Source: Candidatus Omnitrophota bacterium
Lineage (GTDB): Bacteria; Omnitrophota; Gorgyraeia; JAHJTE01
Direction of reading: 5' to 3'
Length of the DNA: 64,000 bases
Assembly (NCBI GenBank): GCA_040753675.1
Contig: JBFMEB010000003.1
Location: 1,715-65,714 of the forward strand
The notes under the pieces are model-generated. The model did not search any database. It saw nothing but the letters and a program-made list of their open reading frames with translations, and had not been told where the DNA came from. Positions 5,300 through 44,768 of the stretch are shown here, piece by piece (position 1 is the stretch's first letter; each line of letters begins with the position of its first letter). A program made the translations under genes and the position numbers.

Positions 5300-5405
5300 T
5301 TTATATCAAATATTAAAAATTAAATATTAAAATTACATATCAAAGTTTAAAAATTTTAAATTTTACATTGTCATTTTGATTTTTACATTTTGATTTTTGC
5401 ATTAA
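5300..5405. repeat. AT-rich AAAATGACAATG-core palindromic repeat (copy R1, inverted)
   Basis: ttttacattgtcattttgatttttacattttgatttttgcatt. Core (RC) at 5366..5377. Confidence 0.6.
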
Positions 5406-5433
5406 AGCGTTATTTATTTAAGAAAACATTATA

Positions 5434-6123
5434 CTAACTTATTATTTGCTTCAGCGCTAAAACCGGGTCTTTTGCTTCTAATATGGGTCTGCCAATAATT
5501 AAGAAATCGCTGCCTGCCTCAATAGCTTCTCCTGCGCTTGCCACTCTTTCCTGGTCATGGCTCAGCGCGCCTTTCGGCCTTATGCCAGGAGTAAAAATTA
5601 AAAAATTCCTTTTAATATTTTTTCTTAAAGCCCTTGCTTCTTTCGCTGAACAAACCACTCCGTCTAAACCGCAGCGCAGAGCAAGTTTTGCCAATTTCAA
5701 TACCCTGCCCGAACTTGCTTTTTGGCTGGTTAAAACCGTGACACCGATTAACAAAGGCCTGCGGTGATTTAGCCGCCGGGATTCCTCTTTTGCTGCCTTG
5801 ACTGCTGCTCTAAGCATTTCATCTTCGCCTTGAATATGGAGAGTAACCATCTTTACTTTTAAACGCACTGCCTGGCGCACTGCATTTCTAACTGTATTAG
5901 GGATATCGAAGAATTTTAAATCCAAAAAAACCTGGCCGCCTTTTTTTTGAATAAATTTAATTATGTCCGGGCCGGCTATGGTAAAAAGCTGCAATCCCAC
6001 CTTGAATATTTTTATTTTTGGATAAAGCCTGTTTACAAAATATTTGGCCTTCTTTAGACTATCGACATCTAAGGCGAGAGTCAATTTAGTTTTCAGTTGT
6101 CGGTTTTCAGTTGTCGGATTCAT
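5434..6123 (-). CDS. pyrF: orotidine 5'-phosphate decarboxylase
   Basis: 229 aa with DLKFFDIPNTV and DVD motifs characteristic of OMP decarboxylase. Confidence 0.85.
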   Translation of the reverse strand: MNPTTENRQLKTKLTLALDVDSLKKAKYFVNRLYPKIKIFKVGLQLFTIAGPDIIKFIQKKGGQVFLDLKFFDIPNTVRNAVRQAVRLKVKMVTLHIQGEDEMLRAAVKAAKEESRRLNHRRPLLIGVTVLTSQKASSGRVLKLAKLALRCGLDGVVCSAKEARALRKNIKRNFLIFTPGIRPKGALSHDQERVASAGEAIEAGSDFLIIGRPILEAKDPVLALKQIIS

Positions 6124-7049
6124 TCTTTTAGCGTTCCGATAAGATTTTTAATATTACTGATATTATTTTCTTTGAGATATTTTTTTATACCAGAAAGGAT
6201 TTCTTTGCTAGCGTTGAGATTGACAAAGTTTACTGTCCCTAAGGATAAGGCAGACGCACCACAGAGCAGATACTCAATTGCATCCTGGCTATTCATTATG
6301 CCGCCGCCTGCAATGATCTGTAATTTAACTGCACAAAATGTCTTATATGTTGCAAAAAGCCCTAATGGCTTTATTGCTGGACCGCTTAAGCCGCCAGTTA
6401 TATTTGCCAGGACAGGTTTTCTTTTATCAATATCTACTGCTAAACCAAAATATGTATTAACCAGAGAAACTGCGTCTGCGCCTGCTTCTTCGCTTGCAAG
6501 TGCAATTTCAGAAATATCAGTAACGTTGGGGGTAAGTTTTACGATTAGCGTCTTCTTGGTTAGCTTGCGTACTGATTTTACAACTTCGAAAGTTGATTTA
6601 GCATCCTGGGAAAACATCGTTTGACCGTGGACTTTTTTGATGTTTGGACAAGATATGTTTATCTCAATAGCTTTCAAACTAGAAATCTTATCTAAACGCT
6701 TTGTCAGTTGCGCAAATTCCTCGATACTTTCTCCCCCGATACTGACAATAACCGGAATTTTTAGCTTTGCTAAATACGGCAATTTTTCATCTAAAAAAGC
6801 ATCGATACCAGGATTATCTAAACCAATAGAATTGAGAAGCCCGCATGGAGTTTCGACTAAGCGTGGAGGAGGATTGCCTGGCCGCGGCTTTACTGTTATT
6901 GTCTTTGTGGTAATAGCGCCAAAATATTTAAGATCAACGAGACCTTCTAATTCCTGTGCATATCCAAAAGTCCCTGATGCAGCGATGAGAGGAGAAATAA
7001 GAGACAAATTGCCGATGCGAGTGGATAAATTTTTTTGCTTAGTTGTCAT
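6120..7049 (-). CDS. pyrD: dihydroorotate dehydrogenase catalytic subunit (class 1B type)
   Basis: 309 aa with TIM-barrel DHOD motifs (ASGTFGY, NSIGLDNPG, IIAGGGI). A PyrK-like electron-transfer subunit is encoded nearby. Confidence 0.85.
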   Translation of the reverse strand: MTTKQKNLSTRIGNLSLISPLIAASGTFGYAQELEGLVDLKYFGAITTKTITVKPRPGNPPPRLVETPCGLLNSIGLDNPGIDAFLDEKLPYLAKLKIPVIVSIGGESIEEFAQLTKRLDKISSLKAIEINISCPNIKKVHGQTMFSQDAKSTFEVVKSVRKLTKKTLIVKLTPNVTDISEIALASEEAGADAVSLVNTYFGLAVDIDKRKPVLANITGGLSGPAIKPLGLFATYKTFCAVKLQIIAGGGIMNSQDAIEYLLCGASALSLGTVNFVNLNASKEILSGIKKYLKENNISNIKNLIGTLKE

Positions 7050-7051
7050 AT

Positions 7052-7576
7052 TTATTGAAACTGTTCCTTAACTTTAGGCCGGGTGAAAAAGAAGATTATA
7101 GAAATATACCAAATCAAGGCAAGTGACCAGAAGACAACCATAATAATTGGCAATATCTTAATTATTGAATTATACCGCGATTCATAATCATTTCTGATTT
7201 GTTCCTGGTATTCTGGCTTATACATTTTAAAATTCTCTTGCATTGCCGCATCAAATACCTTCTTCAATTCTTGCTTTCCATCTACAGAAGTAATCATCTT
7301 ATTTATTTGGCTAAAACCCAAAAAACTAGGAATAAATAAAACTATCAATGCTAATCTTAAAATAATCTCTAATTTTCTCGCCCATTCCTTAAGCTGTAAA
7401 ATAAATATGCCGGCTACTAATCCTAAACCAGAAGACACTAAAGAAAACAGGGGCCTTGAATATGAGCTAACAGCTGAAACGCTCACTGAGTAAACTGAAC
7501 TTAATAAGCCTAACAATCCGGCAATTATAAAAATTATTCCAAATAGTGTCACGCCTTTTGACCTTTGCTGCCCCAT
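7052..7576 (-). CDS. integral membrane protein, function unknown
   Basis: 174 aa with multiple hydrophobic helices. Confidence 0.4.
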   Translation of the reverse strand: MGQQRSKGVTLFGIIFIIAGLLGLLSSVYSVSVSAVSSYSRPLFSLVSSGLGLVAGIFILQLKEWARKLEIILRLALIVLFIPSFLGFSQINKMITSVDGKQELKKVFDAAMQENFKMYKPEYQEQIRNDYESRYNSIIKILPIIMVVFWSLALIWYISIIFFFTRPKVKEQFQ

Positions 7577-13834: not shown

Positions 13835-16348
13835 CTAGAAGAGGCTCAACTGCTCTTCTTGTTTTTTATCTTCGTTTTCGTCAAATATCTTAATAGTGCC
13901 ATACTCTCCGTCGTAGCCAGCTAATATTTTAACTCTTCCCTCGCGCACTCTTAAGATTCCTTCAGCTATGCGTGGGTTAAGAGATTTCTTTAACTCTTCT
14001 TTTGGCACATTAACTAATACCTCAAACTCAGTTTTGAATTTACTTATAATAGAAAAATATTCTTTTTCAACTGTCTGACTAACTTTTCCTACGCCTTTTG
14101 CCTCGGCAATTATTTCATCTAATGGTATTAAATTCTTGAAGGCAATTGCATTTTCTGGATTAAAGCCTTCAGGCCTATCTGCCAATTGTCCTACTCTATT
14201 CATAACCCCTATAGTTACTGGCTTGCCACATTTAGGGCATTTGCCATTATGCTGCTTAGTCTCTTTCGGTGAAAGTCTAATCTGGCAAAGGCGGTGACCG
14301 TCATAATGATATTTTCCCTCTTCGGGGAAAAATTCTATTGTGTAGAGAAATCTCTTTTTATCTTTTGTTTTTAAAACTTCACTGATGGTGTGATAGTCTA
14401 ACTCGCAGTCAAAAACATTTGCTTCCCGGCCAATTCTCGACGGAGAGTGACTATCTGAATTGCTGATCAGGGTAAATCTATCTAAGGCGCTCAGGCGCCA
14501 GTTCATAGATGGATCAGACGATAAACCGCTCTCAAGAGCAAATATTTTTGAAGTTTGTTCTTCAAAGCAGTATTCAATTTTATCAAAACCAGACATTGAA
14601 CCAAAAAGACTAAACCAAGGGGTCCAGCAATTATGAACAGTAGCGAATTCACATACATAAGAATTATCGTCTTCCACTTCTAAATTATAAACAGCTCCTT
14701 TATACTTTTCTTTGAGAATACTTCTAATCGGAAGATATGCATATTTATCATCTATCCAACCATGTCTCGATGGTGATTTTGTTCGAAATTTTCTAAGATT
14801 GCTTTCTTTTAATAAACCAAACTTGTCCTCAAAGAAAGATAGATTGTTGAAATGAAATATATTATGCCGAGCTGATATTCTCCTTAATCCTATAAAATGT
14901 TTACCACGATTTTCATATCCATCTGTAGAATCTATGCCGATGGAAGGAATTATGCCCAATCTTAAGAATATTGCTTTCATTTGATTCATCAAAGTTCGAG
15001 AAACAGTATATCCTCCATCTCCGCGCCACCAACCCTTTACAATCTCTACTTGTTTTTCAAGAGATAATTCTAACATCCATTCTGGCAAACACTTAGTATG
15101 AGCTTTCTTTATTTTTGTATTTATATAGAATAGCCTGCCGAACAATTTACATAAAACCTTGGAATAGAAAATTAACTCTGCTCCTTTCGTATCTTTTTTA
15201 ATGCGCATCTTTGATAAATCGGCATCAAAGATTTTTTTCATTAAATTTATTACATCTTTAATATATCCCTTTTCATTGCTGGAAAAACAAAATGAAACAC
15301 AATCTCTGTTATTTGTATACCCTTCAGAAACAAAATATCCTACTAATCTACAAAAATCCTTATTAATATCAATATCATTATTGATAAAATTCACTTTTGA
15401 GCCTCTATATGCGATTTTATTTCTTTTTAAAATTAATTTTTCTGGCAATAGTTTATTTATTTGCAAACTAACCCTCTCTTTAATTTGATTATTAAACCTG
15501 GGGAAAATTAAAATATCATTGATTTCGAGGTCTTTGGCTTGCACCCATTGTGGGCAATATTGGTTAAAAAATCTTCGGCTGCATCCTTTATATTGCAATT
15601 GAGAACATTTTGGCATACAAAAACTACCCCTCGAACGACAATTCTTATATGATTTTATTATATAAAATGGATGTTCTGGAGTAGTTTTTATGCCCTCTCT
15701 AAAATAATAAGGTTTTATATGAAATAATTCTCCCGTGTATTCTCTTCTAAATGATTTATTAACTTCTCTAAATCGCATTTTATGAGTATATACATAATCA
15801 TTCTTTGCGATATCTTGTATCAGTTTCAATCCATTAGAAGTATGCACAAAAGTATCTGGCAGGAGACAATGCGCTGGAACAATCATGCACTGCGGCGAGA
15901 TATCAAATACAATTTTTGCCAAATCCCGTGCATCCAGGCCTAATATCGGCCTGCCGTCTGAGGCAAGATTGCCAATGCCGGAAAGATGTTGGTTTATCTC
16001 ATCTACAATTTTAAACGATGGCGCAATGATAAGGTTATGTATCCGATAAGTCCTGCCTTTTTTAGAATATATACTGCTTACCTCTGCGGTGAGTATAAAA
16101 TAAATGCCCTTTCCTCCAGAATCCGTAGCGGACCCGCCGCTCTTTGTGGCGGGATGTATAAACAGGCCATTGCCTAAATCTTCTAAATTATGCTTTAATT
16201 CTTCAAGCCACAAGTGATGAGTAAAATCACCCGTCCCCATTAGAGTAATGCCCTTTAACTTAGCCCAGTCAGCAATATGTTTTACATCCATATCCTTGCT
16301 GGTAGCGCGAGAGTATTTTGAATGAATGTGGAAGTCGGCGATAAACAT
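13835..16348 (-). CDS. EndoQ-like PHP-domain nuclease (TIGR00375 family) interrupted by an intein
   Basis: The N-terminal PHP domain FIADFHIHSKYSRATS...GTGDFTHH and the C-terminal zinc ribbon CPKCGKP match endonuclease Q-type proteins. A 413 aa intein separates the extein halves. Confidence 0.65.
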   Translation of the reverse strand: MFIADFHIHSKYSRATSKDMDVKHIADWAKLKGITLMGTGDFTHHLWLEELKHNLEDLGNGLFIHPATKSGGSATDSGGKGIYFILTAEVSSIYSKKGRTYRIHNLIIAPSFKIVDEINQHLSGIGNLASDGRPILGLDARDLAKIVFDISPQCMIVPAHCLLPDTFVHTSNGLKLIQDIAKNDYVYTHKMRFREVNKSFRREYTGELFHIKPYYFREGIKTTPEHPFYIIKSYKNCRSRGSFCMPKCSQLQYKGCSRRFFNQYCPQWVQAKDLEINDILIFPRFNNQIKERVSLQINKLLPEKLILKRNKIAYRGSKVNFINNDIDINKDFCRLVGYFVSEGYTNNRDCVSFCFSSNEKGYIKDVINLMKKIFDADLSKMRIKKDTKGAELIFYSKVLCKLFGRLFYINTKIKKAHTKCLPEWMLELSLEKQVEIVKGWWRGDGGYTVSRTLMNQMKAIFLRLGIIPSIGIDSTDGYENRGKHFIGLRRISARHNIFHFNNLSFFEDKFGLLKESNLRKFRTKSPSRHGWIDDKYAYLPIRSILKEKYKGAVYNLEVEDDNSYVCEFATVHNCWTPWFSLFGSMSGFDKIEYCFEEQTSKIFALESGLSSDPSMNWRLSALDRFTLISNSDSHSPSRIGREANVFDCELDYHTISEVLKTKDKKRFLYTIEFFPEEGKYHYDGHRLCQIRLSPKETKQHNGKCPKCGKPVTIGVMNRVGQLADRPEGFNPENAIAFKNLIPLDEIIAEAKGVGKVSQTVEKEYFSIISKFKTEFEVLVNVPKEELKKSLNPRIAEGILRVREGRVKILAGYDGEYGTIKIFDENEDKKQEEQLSLF
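14630..15868 (-). mobile_element. intein with LAGLIDADG homing endonuclease domain inside the EndoQ-like gene
   Basis: Splice junctions are PAH/CLLPDTF at the N-terminal end and TVHN/CWTPW at the C-terminal end. Internal LAGLIDADG-like motifs are LVGYFVSEGY and GWWRGDGGY. The upper coordinate is uncertain by 1-2 nt. Confidence 0.7.
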
Positions 16349-27590: not shown

Positions 27591-31280
<3,690 letters not shown>

Positions 31281-41182: not shown

Positions 41183-41728
41183 TTGGCTAAAAAACAAAAA
41201 AAGACCATCATTCTGGGCGTAACAGGTAGCATTGCTATATATAAGGCCTGTGAATTAGTGCGTTTATTAAAAGAAGCCAACACAGAAGTAATAGTGGTGA
41301 TGACAAAAGAAGCTCAGGAACTTATTCGGCCTATTACCTTTGCCCATTTATCGGAAAATCCTGTTTATACGGATTTATTTCCAAAGGAACTAAACTGGGA
41401 TTCTTATCATATTTCATTGGCTAGGGAAGCAGACTTGATTGTTGTTGCACCGGCAACGGCAAATATAATAGCTAAATTAGCGAGCGGCTTATGCGACGAT
41501 TTATTAACTTCAACTATTATTGCCAGCAGAGCAAAGGTTTTGATTGCGCCTGCAATGCATGAGACAATGTATATACATCCTGCGACCCAAGAGAATATAG
41601 AGAAATTAAAAAATATCGGCTATCAATTTATTGGCCCGGCAAAAGGAAAACTTGCTTCAGGTGAGGTTGGCATAGGCAGGTTCGTCGAGCCTGAAGAGAT
41701 TTTAAAAAAGATTAAGCAAATATTGTAA
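41183..41728 (+). CDS. coaC: phosphopantothenoylcysteine decarboxylase (flavoprotein, CoaC)
   Basis: IILGVTGSIAIYKA flavoprotein signature. The CoaB half is absent. Confidence 0.75.
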   Translation: MAKKQKKTIILGVTGSIAIYKACELVRLLKEANTEVIVVMTKEAQELIRPITFAHLSENPVYTDLFPKELNWDSYHISLAREADLIVVAPATANIIAKLASGLCDDLLTSTIIASRAKVLIAPAMHETMYIHPATQENIEKLKNIGYQFIGPAKGKLASGEVGIGRFVEPEEILKKIKQIL

Positions 41729-41735
41729 ATTTTTT

Positions 41736-41807
41736 GGCGACGTAGCCAAGTGGCAAGGCAGCGGTCTGCAAAACCGCTATTCAGCGGTTCAAATCCGCTC
41801 GTCGCCT
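41736..41807 (+). tRNA. tRNA-Cys(GCA)
   Basis: Manual fold: acceptor GGCGACG/CGTCGCC, anticodon loop CUGCAAA. A downstream hairpin (41809..41830) acts as terminator. Confidence 0.8.
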
Positions 41808-41968
41808 TGAATTTTGCTTTAGCAAAATTCACCCCGAGCTCTTATAGAAAATTTTCATATGTTTAGCGAGGGGCTGTAATTAAACTGTTAAATTGTTAAA
41901 CTGCTAAATTGAAAAACAATATGGCAATTTAGCAATATAGCAATCAATTTCGAAGGGCAAGTGGTGGA

Positions 41969-42631
41969 ATGGCAGCTCCAAGAAAAGAGTTAAAAATTAG
42001 CGGCCGAAATCTTTGGTATTTAGTGGGCTTAATTACCAGCGACGGCTGTTTGTCAAAAGACGGAAGGCATATTGATATAACGTCTAAAGACTCTCAGTTA
42101 CTAATCAGCTTGACAAAAGAATTAGGCCTTAGTAACAAAGTTGGGGTTAAAAACAGAGGTGCTAAGAATCAGGCATATCATATCCAAATTGCAAATAAAA
42201 ATTTTTATGATTTTCTTTTATCCATTGGTTTAACGCCGAATAAATCTCTTACTTTAAAGAAAGTTGAGGTTCCAGTAATTTATTTTGTCGATTTTTTACG
42301 TGGTCTGGTTGATGGCGATGGAGGCATACAAAGATGGATTCATCGGCCAAATAGAAGAGAGCAGTGGAATTTAAGGATAGCTTCTGGCTCAAAAAGCTTT
42401 TTGGCTTGGCTCAAGAATGAAATTGAGAAGAATATAAGAGCTAAAGGCAGATTATATTCTGAGGGCAAAAACAACTTTAGGTTAAAATATGGCAAAATGG
42501 CTGCCAGAGAAATCGCCAGGAGATGTTATTACGAGAGCTGTCTTGGTTTACAAAGAAAAACAACACTTGCAAGAGATTGCATAACTTCTTATGAAGGCTG
42601 GACTAAAAGTAAAACAGTTCATTTGAATTAA
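41969..42631 (+). CDS. free-standing double-motif LAGLIDADG homing endonuclease
   Basis: 220 aa with two LAGLIDADG motifs (LVGLITSDGCL and FLRGLVDGDGGI). It sits between tRNA-Cys and tRNA-Leu. Confidence 0.75.
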   Translation: MAAPRKELKISGRNLWYLVGLITSDGCLSKDGRHIDITSKDSQLLISLTKELGLSNKVGVKNRGAKNQAYHIQIANKNFYDFLLSIGLTPNKSLTLKKVEVPVIYFVDFLRGLVDGDGGIQRWIHRPNRREQWNLRIASGSKSFLAWLKNEIEKNIRAKGRLYSEGKNNFRLKYGKMAAREIARRCYYESCLGLQRKTTLARDCITSYEGWTKSKTVHLN

Positions 42632-42639
42632 TAATTATT

Positions 42640-42723
42640 GCCGGGATGTTGGAACTGGTAGACAATGGGGACTTAAAATCCCCCGCTCGTAAGAGCGTGA
42701 GGGTTCAAATCCCTCTCCCGGCA
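42640..42723 (+). tRNA. tRNA-Leu(TAA)
   Basis: 84 nt with a long variable arm and anticodon loop CUUAAAA. Confidence 0.8.
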
Positions 42724-42856
42724 CATTAGTAATATTAAAGATTAAATATCAAAAATAAAATATTAGCGAACGACTCAGGTTCGCAGGCTGTTATCCGTGG
42801 TATTTATTTTGGATTTTGATATTTGACATTGGGATTTGCGAACGTAAGTGAGTTTC

Positions 42857-42931
42857 GGGCTCATAGCGTAGCCTGGTTAGCGCGTCTCCTTGACATGGAG
42901 AAGGTCAGAGGTTCAAATCCTCTTGGGCCCA
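42857..42931 (+). tRNA. tRNA-Val(GAC)
   Basis: Manual fold with anticodon loop UUGACAU. A genomically encoded CCA follows. Confidence 0.8.
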
Positions 42932-42939
42932 CCATAAAA

Positions 42940-43043
42940 TAAAATGCAAAAATCAAAAATCAAAAGTCAAAAATACAAATCAAAATTCAAAATTTTACAT
43001 TTTGCATTGTCATTTTGCATTTTGCATTTTGATATTTGAATTT
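42940..43043. repeat. AT-rich AAAATGACAATG-core palindromic repeat (copy R3)
   Basis: Near-perfect palindrome aaatgcaaaaatcaaaa...ttttgatatttgaattt. Core (RC) at 43011..43022. Confidence 0.6.
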
Positions 43044-43049
43044 ACTGTT

Positions 43050-44768
43050 ATGGATTTAGATACTCTTAGACATTCTTGTTCTCACGTTTTAGCCAAGGCA
43101 GTTAAAGAGCTTTGGTCAGACGTAAAATTAGGCATTGGCCCTTCGATAGAAGACGGCTTTTATTATGATTTTGAAAAAGATCCGCCGTTTTCCGAAGAGG
43201 ATTTAGAAAAAATCGAAAATCGTATGCAGCAGATTATTAAGCGCAACGAAAAGTTTACGCGCTTGGATTTGTCTAAAGATGAGGCAATAAGGATTTTTAA
43301 GAGACTCGGCGAGCATTACAAGTTAACCCTGTTGTCAGAGATTCCAGAAGCCCAGGTTTCGCTTTATAAGACAGGCGATAATTTTGTCGATTTATGCCGC
43401 GGGCCACATGTTGAATCTACTGGCCAGATTAAGGTTTTTAAATTGCTCTCATTAGCCGGTGCTTACTGGCACGGCATAGAGACTAACCCCATGCTTCAGA
43501 GAATTTATGGCACTGCTTTTCCAGATAAGAAGTCCTTAGATGAAGATTTAAAGCGCAGGGAAGAGGCAAAGAAAAGAGACCACAGAAAATTAGGTCCTGA
43601 ACTGGGGTTCTTTGATATTTATTATGAGCAGGCAGGCGCAGGTCTTGTGTTTTATCATCCCAAAGGAGCAATGTTACGCAAAATCATAGAAGATTTTGAG
43701 AAAGAAGAACATTTGCGCCGGGGCTATCAGATGGTGATAACACCACACTTATTAAAGCAGGATCTTTGGATTCAATCCGGACATTTTGAATATTACCGCG
43801 ATAATATGTTTGTGTTAGATATCGACGAGAGAGAGTATGCAGTAAAACCCATGAATTGCCCAGGCCATATTTTAATATACAAATCAAAATTGCGCAGTTA
43901 CCGGGAATTGCCTCTGCGGTTTTTTGAGCTGGGCACAGTGTATCGCTATGAAAAAAGCGGAGTTTTGCATGGTCTTTTGCGCGTGCGAGGGTTTACTCAA
44001 GATGATGCACATATTTTTTGTCGGCAAGAAGAATTAAAAGACGAAATTAAAAATGTTATTGATTTTGTGCTGGATACAATGAAGGTATTTGGCTTTTGCG
44101 ACATGCATATTGAATTAAGCACCCAGCCAGAAAAACACATCGGCCTGCCTGAACAGTGGCAGGCAGCAACAACTGCATTAGAAGATTCATTAAAAGAAAG
44201 AAGATTGCCCTATGTTATCAATATCGGAGAAGGCGCATTTTATGGGCCTAAAATAGATATCAAATTAAAAGATGCCTTAAAACGCACATGGCAGTGCGCA
44301 ACTATTCAATGCGATTTTACTCTGCCTCACAGGTTTGATTTAACCTATGTGGATAAAGATGGCAAGCAAAAACAACCGATTATGCTGCATCGTGTCCTCC
44401 TTGGCAGTTTAGAGAGATTTATCGGCGCCTTAATTGAACATTATGCCGGCGCCTTGCCTTTGTGGCTTTCACCGGTTCAAGTTATAATTTTGCCGTTAAA
44501 AGATTCGGTTAATGCCTATAGCCAGAAACTGCAACAGCGGCTAATCAACGAAGGTTTGCGTTGCGAGATTGATTTAGAAAATCAGACTTTGAATAAAAAA
44601 ATCCGCGAAGCAGAGACACAGCGAATTCCTTACATATTGATTGTCGGGGAAAAAGAGGTCGAAAAAGAAGAGGTTTCTGTAAGGAAACGCTCTGTCGGCG
44701 ATCAAGGCGCTATGAAAGTAAGCGAATTTATAAAAAGGGTTAAGAAAGAGATAGAAGAGAAAAAATAG
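43050..44768 (+). CDS. thrS: threonine--tRNA ligase
   Basis: Class II aaRS motifs, an N2/editing region and a C-terminal anticodon-binding domain. The start is probably MDLDTLRHSCSH at 43050. Confidence 0.9.
   Translation: MDLDTLRHSCSHVLAKAVKELWSDVKLGIGPSIEDGFYYDFEKDPPFSEEDLEKIENRMQQIIKRNEKFTRLDLSKDEAIRIFKRLGEHYKLTLLSEIPEAQVSLYKTGDNFVDLCRGPHVESTGQIKVFKLLSLAGAYWHGIETNPMLQRIYGTAFPDKKSLDEDLKRREEAKKRDHRKLGPELGFFDIYYEQAGAGLVFYHPKGAMLRKIIEDFEKEEHLRRGYQMVITPHLLKQDLWIQSGHFEYYRDNMFVLDIDEREYAVKPMNCPGHILIYKSKLRSYRELPLRFFELGTVYRYEKSGVLHGLLRVRGFTQDDAHIFCRQEELKDEIKNVIDFVLDTMKVFGFCDMHIELSTQPEKHIGLPEQWQAATTALEDSLKERRLPYVINIGEGAFYGPKIDIKLKDALKRTWQCATIQCDFTLPHRFDLTYVDKDGKQKQPIMLHRVLLGSLERFIGALIEHYAGALPLWLSPVQVIILPLKDSVNAYSQKLQQRLINEGLRCEIDLENQTLNKKIREAETQRIPYILIVGEKEVEKEEVSVRKRSVGDQGAMKVSEFIKRVKKEIEEKK

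Follow-up and report, generated by a model that had tools for sequence, protein, structure and literature searches.

Comparison with described homing systems

Selfish insertions in essential genes are normally tolerated through being spliced out, introns from the RNA and inteins from the protein. In the intronless homing of phages, as with T4 SegF at gene 56 or MobE at nrdB, the nuclease cleaves alleles without its gene, the donor is resistant by its sequence, and repair co-converts the flank. The synthetic gene drive ClvR (Cleave and Rescue) combines a nuclease that destroys an essential gene with a linked, recoded and uncuttable copy that rescues the carriers; it is an engineered system based on Cas9 in diploid insects, and its spread comes from the killing of non-carriers. 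The T4 tRNA cluster encodes SegB, a free-standing GIY-YIG nuclease with a tRNA motif as its recognition site, which spreads along with adjacent tRNA genes (PMC2330249). The present analysis concerns 64,000 nt of DNA from a Candidatus Omnitrophota bacterium (contig JBFMEB010000003.1, positions 1,715 to 65,714), hereafter called the window, to which all coordinates without a locus prefix refer. It contains a LAGLIDADG homing endonuclease gene (HEG), designated HEG1, followed by a gene for tRNA-Leu(UAA). We consider it probable that 41955-42724 is a two-gene mobile cassette, made up of HEG1 and this tRNA-Leu(UAA), which has broken the resident tRNA-Leu(UAA) of a Cys/Leu/Val tRNA cluster by the mechanism proposed below. 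The element appears to represent a third solution next to introns and inteins, in that it brings a complete spare copy of the gene broken.

The element resembles T4 SegB in being a free-standing nuclease gene within a tRNA cluster, and here too the recognition site would lie in tRNA-gene sequence. SegB homing spreads the nuclease with adjacent tRNA genes and erases recipient markers (PMC2330249), as is presumed for the cassette. SegB differs in being a GIY-YIG enzyme of a phage genome that uses a TpsiC motif shared by tRNAs and homes upon co-infection, whereas HEG1 is a LAGLIDADG gene of bacterial chromosomes, is tied to one tRNA gene, interrupts that gene and supplies a replacement allele. 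The logic would be the same as in the intronless homing of SegF/gene 56 and MobE/nrdB. However, SegF and MobE stand beside an intact target gene, while here the resident gene is broken and the cargo is a second, complete copy of it. In fold, in the two LAGLIDADG helices with catalytic Asp and in size (~200-250 aa) the protein is like I-Tsp061I, I-DmoI, I-AniI and the I-OnuI family, which unlike HEG1 are encoded in rRNA or mitochondrial introns. Introns of tRNA-Leu are likewise selfish insertions in the same tRNA gene, the function of which must persist; they keep it by RNA splicing, whereas the HEG1 element has no ribozyme and carries a whole spare gene. With ClvR it has in common a nuclease and a linked substitute for the broken gene, yet its presumed function would entail spread by repair-mediated copying after bacterial DNA exchange.

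The nuclease family, the homing logic and free-standing intronless homing in T4-like phages are already well known. What appears to be new is a break-and-replace design that acts on essential tRNA genes of bacterial chromosomes, in two phyla. No description of a LAGLIDADG gene paired with a replacement tRNA gene was found in the literature searched, although coverage was incomplete and an earlier mention is possible; nor, with the same incomplete coverage, was any description of homing endonucleases in Omnitrophota.

Anatomy of the cassette and fossils of the resident tRNA-Leu gene

The cassette and the host genes on either side of it are arranged as follows, types A and B being the two classes of tRNA-Leu(UAA) allele described in the next section.

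41736-41807, + strand: tRNA-Cys(GCA), host gene 5' of the element (ARAGORN; Rfam tRNA 68.5 bits; common Omnitrophota type, GGCGACG...)
41955-41974, + strand: 5' fossil of the broken resident tRNA-Leu(UAA), equal to nt 1-20 of type A (GGGCAAGTGGTGGAATGGCA)
41969-42631, + strand: HEG1, free-standing single-chain LAGLIDADG homing endonuclease gene, ATG start, 220 aa
42020-42046, + strand: LAGLIDADG motif 1, LVGLITSDG, with D25 and G26 invariant across the family
42296-42322, + strand: LAGLIDADG motif 2, LRGLVDGDG, with D115, D117 and G118 invariant across the family
42640-42724, + strand: tRNA-Leu(UAA) type B (GCCGGGATGTTGGAACTGG...), 8 nt 3' of the HEG1 stop codon (ARAGORN; Rfam tRNA 52.3 bits)
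42857-42934, + strand: tRNA-Val(GAC), host gene 3' of the element (ARAGORN, Rfam)

A preliminary description of this DNA had placed the nuclease gene in an intergenic gap between tRNA-Cys and tRNA-Leu. The order holds, but the gap does not, as the open reading frame (ORF) lies inside a broken tRNA-Leu gene marked by the fossil at 41955-41974, and the downstream tRNA-Leu is better read as cargo. The fossil consists of the 14 nt before the ATG together with the first 6 nt of the ORF, and equals type-A nt 1-20 at 100% identity (blastn-short). At up to 3 mismatches this is the single match in the window, with a chance expectation of 0.

For comparison, 80 further occupied loci were taken from metagenomes, and 96 nuclease-linked tRNA-Leu genes were compared; loci are referred to by L and a number. 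5' fossils are present in 15/96 occupied loci. Fossils of 20-24 nt at 100% identity also occur in L001, L056, L115 and L125/L128, and longer, degraded ones in L033, L101 and L132, those of L101 and L132 reaching about the anticodon loop. Both ends of the tRNA are retained in L001, with type-A nt 1-20 upstream and nt 59/60-83 located 18 nt past its type-B tRNA-Leu. Type-A 3' fossils were additionally found in L012 (nt 53-83) and L094 (nt 30-83). Across these loci the 5' fossils end at nt 20, 24, 25 or ~35 and the 3' fossils start at nt 30, 53 or 59. Fossils on either side therefore place the ORF and a complete tRNA-Leu, as one unit, inside a split resident tRNA-Leu gene.

Several apparent signals were discarded. 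Putative 3' fossils in L065, L088, L096, L100, L106, L110, L112, L125, L128 and L131 are actually the T-arm of tRNA-Val or of another tRNA. Derivation of the HEG1 ATG from the tRNA D-loop is probably only apparent, since L033, L101 and L132 start with ATGCCA 3-4 nt past the fossil; tentatively, a deletion between the similar sequences AATGGCA and AATGCCA accounts better for the ATGGCA junction found in the window, L001, L056 and others. A resemblance between the anticodon arm of the tRNA (GAAGGA..TTAAAA) and the initial ~10 codons amounts to only 5-7 extra alignment points and was judged not significant. In L094 (2825-3591) a stretch of ~760 nt stands between the cassette tRNA-Leu and the type-A 3' fossil, and no LAGLIDADG ORF was detected in it with the family hidden Markov model (HMM).

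Linkage of HEG1 to tRNA-Leu(UAA) and the two allele classes

A tRNA-Leu(UAA) gene lies directly 3' of HEG1 in 79/80 metagenome loci, usually after a gap of ~5-12 nt, and the remaining locus has no downstream sequence. The gene 5' of HEG1 varies at these loci, being tRNA-Cys, Val(GAC), Val(CAC), Gly or Thr. With a constant 3' neighbour and a variable 5' one, HEG1 therefore tracks tRNA-Leu(UAA) and not the Cys/Leu spacer. At several loci (L056, L064, L086, L087, L100, L133, L156, L157 and L160-L164) HEG1 has no stop codon ahead of the tRNA-Leu, and the nuclease ORF runs 30-140 nt into or through the tRNA gene to give products of 230-270 aa.

Alignment of all tRNA-Leu(UAA) genes yielded two sharply distinct classes. 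The type A allele, near-invariant at empty sites, opens with GGGCAAGTGGTGGAATGGCATACACGA... (the type-A gene is also given as GGGCAAGTGGTGGAATGGCATACACGACAGACTTAAAATCTGT...). Alleles at occupied sites mostly have another acceptor stem (type B, GCCGGGrTG..., to which the window allele belongs), and some have an A-like backbone with an altered D-arm. The smallest departures from type A are D-loop changes from GGCAT to GGTTT (L015) or GGCTT (L092). An exact type-A 27-mer was found at 42/48 empty sites, as opposed to none of the 96 nuclease-linked tRNA-Leu genes. In the genomes sampled by neighbouring gene alone, the figures are 0/13 with HEG1 and 42/48 empty (Fisher p = 4e-9). Between genomes with HEG1 and those with empty sites the tRNA-Leu genes are 68% identical, while the flanking tRNA-Cys and tRNA-Val genes are 84% and 82% identical, respectively. 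Because these flanking genes are more alike between the groups, the split in tRNA-Leu is not a host-clade effect. A check that could have contradicted the pairing bore it out: every recognisable HEG1 remnant stands beside a non-A tRNA-Leu, and no HEG1 trace was detected in long spacers beside type A, either with a protein HMM in three frames or with a DNA HMM. A suspected hyper-diversity of the HEG-linked tRNA-Leu genes, which would have been an arms-race signature, was dropped, as their mean pairwise identity of 76% is close to the 80-82% of tRNA-Cys and tRNA-Val in the same genomes.

The linkage and the alleles indicate that the tRNA-Leu(UAA) at 42640-42724 is cargo of the element rather than a host neighbour, and that it travels with the ORF. 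The cargo tRNA-Leu is presumably a functional, nuclease-resistant replacement. Co-conversion of a flanking marker with the nuclease gene is indicated by the tRNA-Leu allele, and the replacement tract seen between L038 and L069 (below) agrees with it.

The nuclease

The ORF, both motifs, the Pfam match and the predicted fold agree with the preliminary identification of a 220-aa double-motif LAGLIDADG protein. The match to Pfam PF14528 (LAGLIDADG_3) scores 37.2 bits against a cut-off of 22.5 and extends over two stretches. No Hint/intein domain and no additional helix-turn-helix or other domain was detected with Pfam. Both catalytic Asp are conserved without exception in 25 diverse homologues, and the window ORF has all family-invariant residues; loss of catalytic acidic residues, named earlier as grounds for rejecting a homing endonuclease, is thus not observed in either motif. 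A conserved C-terminal segment, KYGKM..CYY..C..GW.KSKT, is peculiar to the family. The best PDB sequence match is the archaeal intron enzyme I-Tsp061I (2dch; E = 2e-8). An AlphaFold (AF2) model built from the 25 homologues has two helix plus four-strand repeats, in keeping with a pseudo-dimeric alpha-beta-beta-alpha-beta-beta-alpha fold, with a predicted local distance difference test score (pLDDT) of 87 and a predicted template modelling score (pTM) of 0.86. Foldseek placed I-Tsp061I, I-AniI, I-DmoI and I-OnuI-type enzymes at the top with probability 1.00, at 12-21% identity. By sequence and modelled fold HEG1 thus belongs to the single-chain, double-motif LAGLIDADG nucleases, and site-specific double-strand cleavage at a DNA target of ~20 bp is predicted for it.

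About 770 homologues of HEG1 were found, and at E <= 1e-30 its relatives fall into 153 representative clusters. The best 120 are nearly all 219-222 aa long and 58-71% identical, and those that carry an organism name are from Omnitrophota. NCBI already labels the homologues 'LAGLIDADG family homing endonuclease'. Intact copies are under purifying selection, the ratio of nonsynonymous to synonymous substitution (dN/dS) being 0.07-0.3, and the level of conservation of HEG1 is about that of the adjacent flavoprotein gene.

Occupancy across Omnitrophota and evidence of movement

The locus was sampled via the neighbouring flavoprotein and not via the ORF, which gave 80 species-level genomes and 68 loci with both tRNAs resolved. 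Empty sites were found in 48/68 species, where tRNA-Leu(UAA) lies 7-25 nt (in some cases up to ~250 nt) past tRNA-Cys. Intact HEG1 is present in 13/68 species, truncated or frameshifted remnants in 4/68, and in 3/68 a different LAGLIDADG ORF flanks tRNA-Cys on its opposite side. Comparison of this locus in relatives had been suggested earlier; the gene is not universal and empty-site alleles are the majority. Together with the invariant catalytic Asp, the 48 empty sites bear out the proposal of a selfish homing endonuclease insertion at the tRNA-Cys/tRNA-Leu locus. Decayed copies have internal, 5' or 3' deletions (L020, L049, L061, L070), and a marginal trace is present in L023.

Occupied and empty loci are interleaved on the host tree, including short-branch sister pairs. 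Pairwise identity of HEG1 is weakly correlated with that of the host genes (Spearman rho 0.25-0.39), while the two host genes correlate with each other at 0.83. In close pairs the synonymous divergence (pS) of HEG1 is 2-3 times below that of flanking host genes: 0.21 versus 0.53 and 0.63 in the genes on either side for L008-L038, and 0.33 versus 0.60 and 0.68 for L008-L012. In the L008/L038 alignment a tract of 93-98% identity is limited to the 5' two-thirds of HEG1, with flanks at 70-88%. L038, which has HEG1, and L069, which is empty, have flanking genes that are 90-100% identical, yet they differ from the flavoprotein stop codon through the end of tRNA-Leu, with near-identity returning at tRNA-Val. 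The locus is thus polymorphic for the presence of HEG1, has decay products, and shows purifying selection as well as recent horizontal exchange. HEG1 is apparently a functional-looking, mobile selfish gene with the classical life cycle of a homing endonuclease gene, because interleaved occupancy, lower pS, a recombinant tract, purifying selection and decayed copies occur together.

A second nuclease lineage paired with tRNA-Cys

The different LAGLIDADG ORF, designated HEG2, is ~27% identical to HEG1. It lies directly 5' of, or overlaps, tRNA-Cys(GCA) in L023, L066, L136, L142, L143 and L145, and L040 has a partial copy that overlaps tRNA-Cys. In L136, L142 and L145 the HEG2 and HEG1 cassettes stand in tandem. 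The HEG2 coordinates, in the numbering of each locus, are:

L023: 4388-5230
L066: 822-1592
L136: 1291-2013
L142: 1649-2428
L145: 973-1695
L166-L169: 2001-~2740

HEG2 has ~1,000 homologues, including Patescibacteria proteins at ~48% identity. In three Patescibacteria contigs with unrelated neighbourhoods and in one more Omnitrophota contig, the end of HEG2 is at most 16 nt from tRNA-Cys(GCA) or overlaps it. The 228-nt spacer between the flavoprotein and tRNA-Cys in L069 (4541-4768) is an internally deleted version of the L066 HEG2, with 97% identity in the 153 nt at its start and 96% in the 82 nt at its end. The tRNA-Cys of both L066 and L069 is a variant that opens with GGCGTGGTACCC... instead of GGCGACGTAGCC..., and in Omnitrophota the HEG2-linked tRNA-Cys is a variant allele. 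No tRNA-Cys fossils above noise were found upstream of HEG2 in 9 loci. From adjacency and the linked variant allele, HEG2 appears to be a parallel case, paired with tRNA-Cys as HEG1 is with tRNA-Leu.

Partial 3' fragments of the common-type tRNA-Cys were seen in L003 (4884-4905 and just upstream of 5001), L015 and L064 (4740-4755). They stand 3' of a complete variant tRNA-Cys and just 5' of the nuclease ATG, and may be 3' fossils left when a tRNA-Cys was replaced earlier.

Proposed mechanism and significance

The fossils, the linkage to tRNA-Leu(UAA) and the allele association are directly observed features of the cassette's anatomy. In the mechanism that we propose, the nuclease would recognise ~20 bp in the 5' half of type-A tRNA-Leu(UAA), from the D-loop to the anticodon arm, and cut there. 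The 5' half is suggested because the fossil ends bracket about nt 20-35 and the D-loop is the one region altered in every linked allele. The break would be repaired from cassette-bearing DNA with the conserved flanking tRNA genes as homology, so that the ORF and its own tRNA-Leu are copied in; tRNA-Cys(GCA) at 41736-41807 is likely the upstream homology arm and tRNA-Val(GAC) at 42857-42934 likely the downstream one. The cargo tRNA-Leu, unlike type A in the recognised region, would escape cutting and restore the lost tRNA function. A replacement copy would be needed because insertion destroys the resident gene, and TTA and TTG together make up 61% of Leu codons in the long ORFs of the window. 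HEG1 would be expressed from the transcript of the tRNA cluster, from which tRNA processing would release it, because most loci leave only 5-11 nt between tRNA-Cys and the ATG, with no room for a promoter of its own. Later decay of the ORF by deletion would leave a nuclease-free, non-A tRNA-Leu.

Several points weigh against this explanation or restrict it. That the tRNA-Leu gene is the cleavage target we infer only from the anatomy and the allele association, which, with remnants found only beside non-A alleles, lend strong but indirect support to a target in the nuclease-less allele at the insertion point. The insertion point is bracketed to about nt 20-35, and the recognition site cannot be centred precisely. 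Fossils are missing at 81/96 loci with HEG1, and at many of these the ATG lies 5-11 nt past tRNA-Cys; at most loci, therefore, the fossils have been deleted or the copies came by recombination in the flanks. L106, L147 and L126/L145 have 5' fossils of non-A type, and specificity must therefore be more complex than 'A sensitive, B resistant'; specificities probably differ among HEG1 sublineages. The non-A fossils also hint at repeated retargeting, that is, an arms race between nuclease specificity and tRNA sequence. The allele comparison covers the tRNA-Leu(UAA) at the locus only, and the host tree is a rough neighbour-joining tree of two proteins. Recent transfer is clearly evident from a few close pairs only; synonymous sites are saturated in most pairs. 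No HEG1 relatives were found in viral contigs, and no vector between cells was identified.

HEG1 and HEG2 taken together may represent a natural 'cleave-and-replace' class, in which every LAGLIDADG nuclease would be specialised for a single essential tRNA gene, Leu(UAA) or Cys(GCA), would destroy the resident copy and insert itself along with a nuclease-resistant substitute, and would thereby drive the turnover of tRNA alleles across uncultivated phyla; we lean towards this generalisation, though with modest conviction. If the tRNA gene is indeed cleaved, engineered cleave-and-rescue gene drives would have a natural counterpart in the element, and intronless homing would extend from phages to the chromosomes of two large uncultivated phyla. 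Homing nucleases would then shape the evolution of core tRNA genes, which would explain the foreign tRNA-Leu and tRNA-Cys alleles of some genomes, and hundreds of related single-chain meganucleases that differ naturally in their targets would be at hand. For annotation, tRNA genes adjoining such ORFs may be horizontally acquired and thus unreliable as markers.

Alternative explanations

The serious rival is a free-standing nuclease with a target other than the tRNA-Leu gene, such as a generic tRNA motif, the spacer or another gene, where the linkage to tRNA-Leu would reflect expression signals and the allele passive co-conversion. For T4 SegB the recognition site is a TpsiC motif shared among tRNAs rather than any single gene (PMC2330249). 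With gaps of 5-11 nt the ORF would be dependent on transcription of the tRNA cluster, a linked foreign tRNA allele could be explained by co-conversion alone, and non-A-type fossils do exist. We nevertheless regard a target elsewhere as unlikely. tRNA-Leu(UAA) is specifically 3' of the ORF in 79/80 loci, even with other tRNAs upstream, and the fossils show that tRNA-Leu itself was interrupted. Nuclease-linked alleles with an A backbone still carry D-loop changes, which are absent from 42/48 empty sites, and the second lineage is equally specific, for tRNA-Cys, across two phyla.

Uniform homologues and synteny were first read as an old, fixed, domesticated gene, a reading rejected by the mostly empty sites. 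As a LAGLIDADG host protein (a WhiA-like regulator or an RNA maturase), inherited vertically in Omnitrophota with many losses, HEG1 would fit the very uniform length of ~770 homologues at 58-71% identity, the conserved housekeeping synteny, the strong purifying selection and a divergence like that of the neighbouring flavoprotein. Yet the gene is absent, with clean empty sites, in 51/68 sampled species and is patchy even among near-identical relatives (L038 versus L069); its pS is below that of the host flanks; the catalytic Asp is retained, unlike in WhiA, with no added domain detected by Pfam; and decayed copies are common, the constant companion being a non-A tRNA-Leu. Domestication is therefore rated as quite improbable. 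Still less credible is the remnant of a group I intron with an endonuclease ORF in tRNA-Leu(UAA), its ribozyme lost or no longer recognisable, to which we assign only a very slight chance. The preliminary description had raised the question of introns in the neighbouring tRNA genes. Group I introns are well known from tRNA-Leu(UAA), some uncultivated phyla frequently have introns in their tRNA genes, and the 5' fossils of L101 and L132 extend to about the anticodon loop. However, even at E <= 1 no Rfam intron family, group I or group II, matches within 41600-43100; the downstream tRNA-Leu is complete by itself, with a different acceptor stem; splicing of the flanking fossils could not yield a functional tRNA, whose middle part is missing from them; and the 8 nt from stop codon to tRNA leave no space for a ribozyme core.

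Other features of the window

The spacer between tRNA-Cys and the cassette has two features of its own, and two genes elsewhere in the window contain inteins.

41808-41831, + strand: perfect 11-bp hairpin, TGAATTTTGCT tt AGCAAAATTCA, abutting the tRNA-Cys 3' end (inverted-repeat search)
41880-41944, + strand: imperfect palindrome of 8-nt tandem repeats in the native Cys-Leu spacer, TTAAAYTG x4 facing CAATWTRG x3
27591-31280, - strand: gyrB intein host gene, with an intein of ~430 residues at ~430-863 of the 1228-aa product
13835-16348, - strand: TIGR00375-family protein, 836 aa, with an intein containing a LAGLIDADG_3 domain at residues ~266-572

A terminator had been proposed after tRNA-Cys. 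The hairpin at 41808-41831 has no T-tract, a + strand consensus terminator scan calls nothing there, and equivalent hairpins follow tRNA-Cys at empty loci (L078, L055, L047, L009, L021, L054) as well as at loci with HEG1 (L033, L065). It is a host spacer feature outside the element and not a canonical terminator; the hairpin may serve as a host processing or termination signal. At long-spacer loci the hairpin is A/T-rich (AATTTT-N-loop-N-AAAATT), the letters of the stem varying with pairing maintained. The palindromic motif noted upstream of the nuclease gene was recovered as repeats at 41880-41911 against inverted copies at 41917-41944, with 20-nt arms that are 85% complementary; its units are TTAAACTG TTAAATTG TTAAACTG CTAAATTG facing CAATATGG CAATTTAG CAATATAG. 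Consensus scanning found no promoter-like or terminator-like sites on the + strand between the tRNA-Cys and tRNA-Leu of the window. The sole + strand promoter-like matches of the region fall within 42935-43040, from tRNA-Val to the thrS start, where low-complexity A-rich repeats (caaaaatcaaaaatcaaaagtcaaaaatacaaatcaaaattcaaaa) are followed by ttttgcatt repeats.

Two inteins, the number counted in the preliminary description, were verified, in GyrB and in the TIGR00375-family protein; in the latter protein the host family profile is matched by the C-terminal part only. A further free-standing LAGLIDADG gene, also claimed for the window, was found neither with motif regular expressions nor with the family HMM on six-frame ORFs, so that the four homing-type elements counted in the 64 kb become three. 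The window includes a replication-origin region with dnaA, gyrB, gyrA, yidC and parAB. The cassette is set in a housekeeping block, ParA-ParB-NDK-YicC-Gmk-RpoZ-flavoprotein-tRNA-Cys-ORF-tRNA-Leu-tRNA-Val...ThrRS-IF3-L35-L20-TrkA, which is the same at the loci of three divergent homologues.

Two further observations concern the same tRNA cluster in relatives. L012 has ~1.7 kb between tRNA-Leu and tRNA-Val (5398-7099), a distance that is <300 nt at most loci. In L003 (5912-6187), and also in L004, an ORF of 91 aa with a GIY-YIG domain lies just 3' of tRNA-Val and may be another homing-type nuclease gene at this locus.

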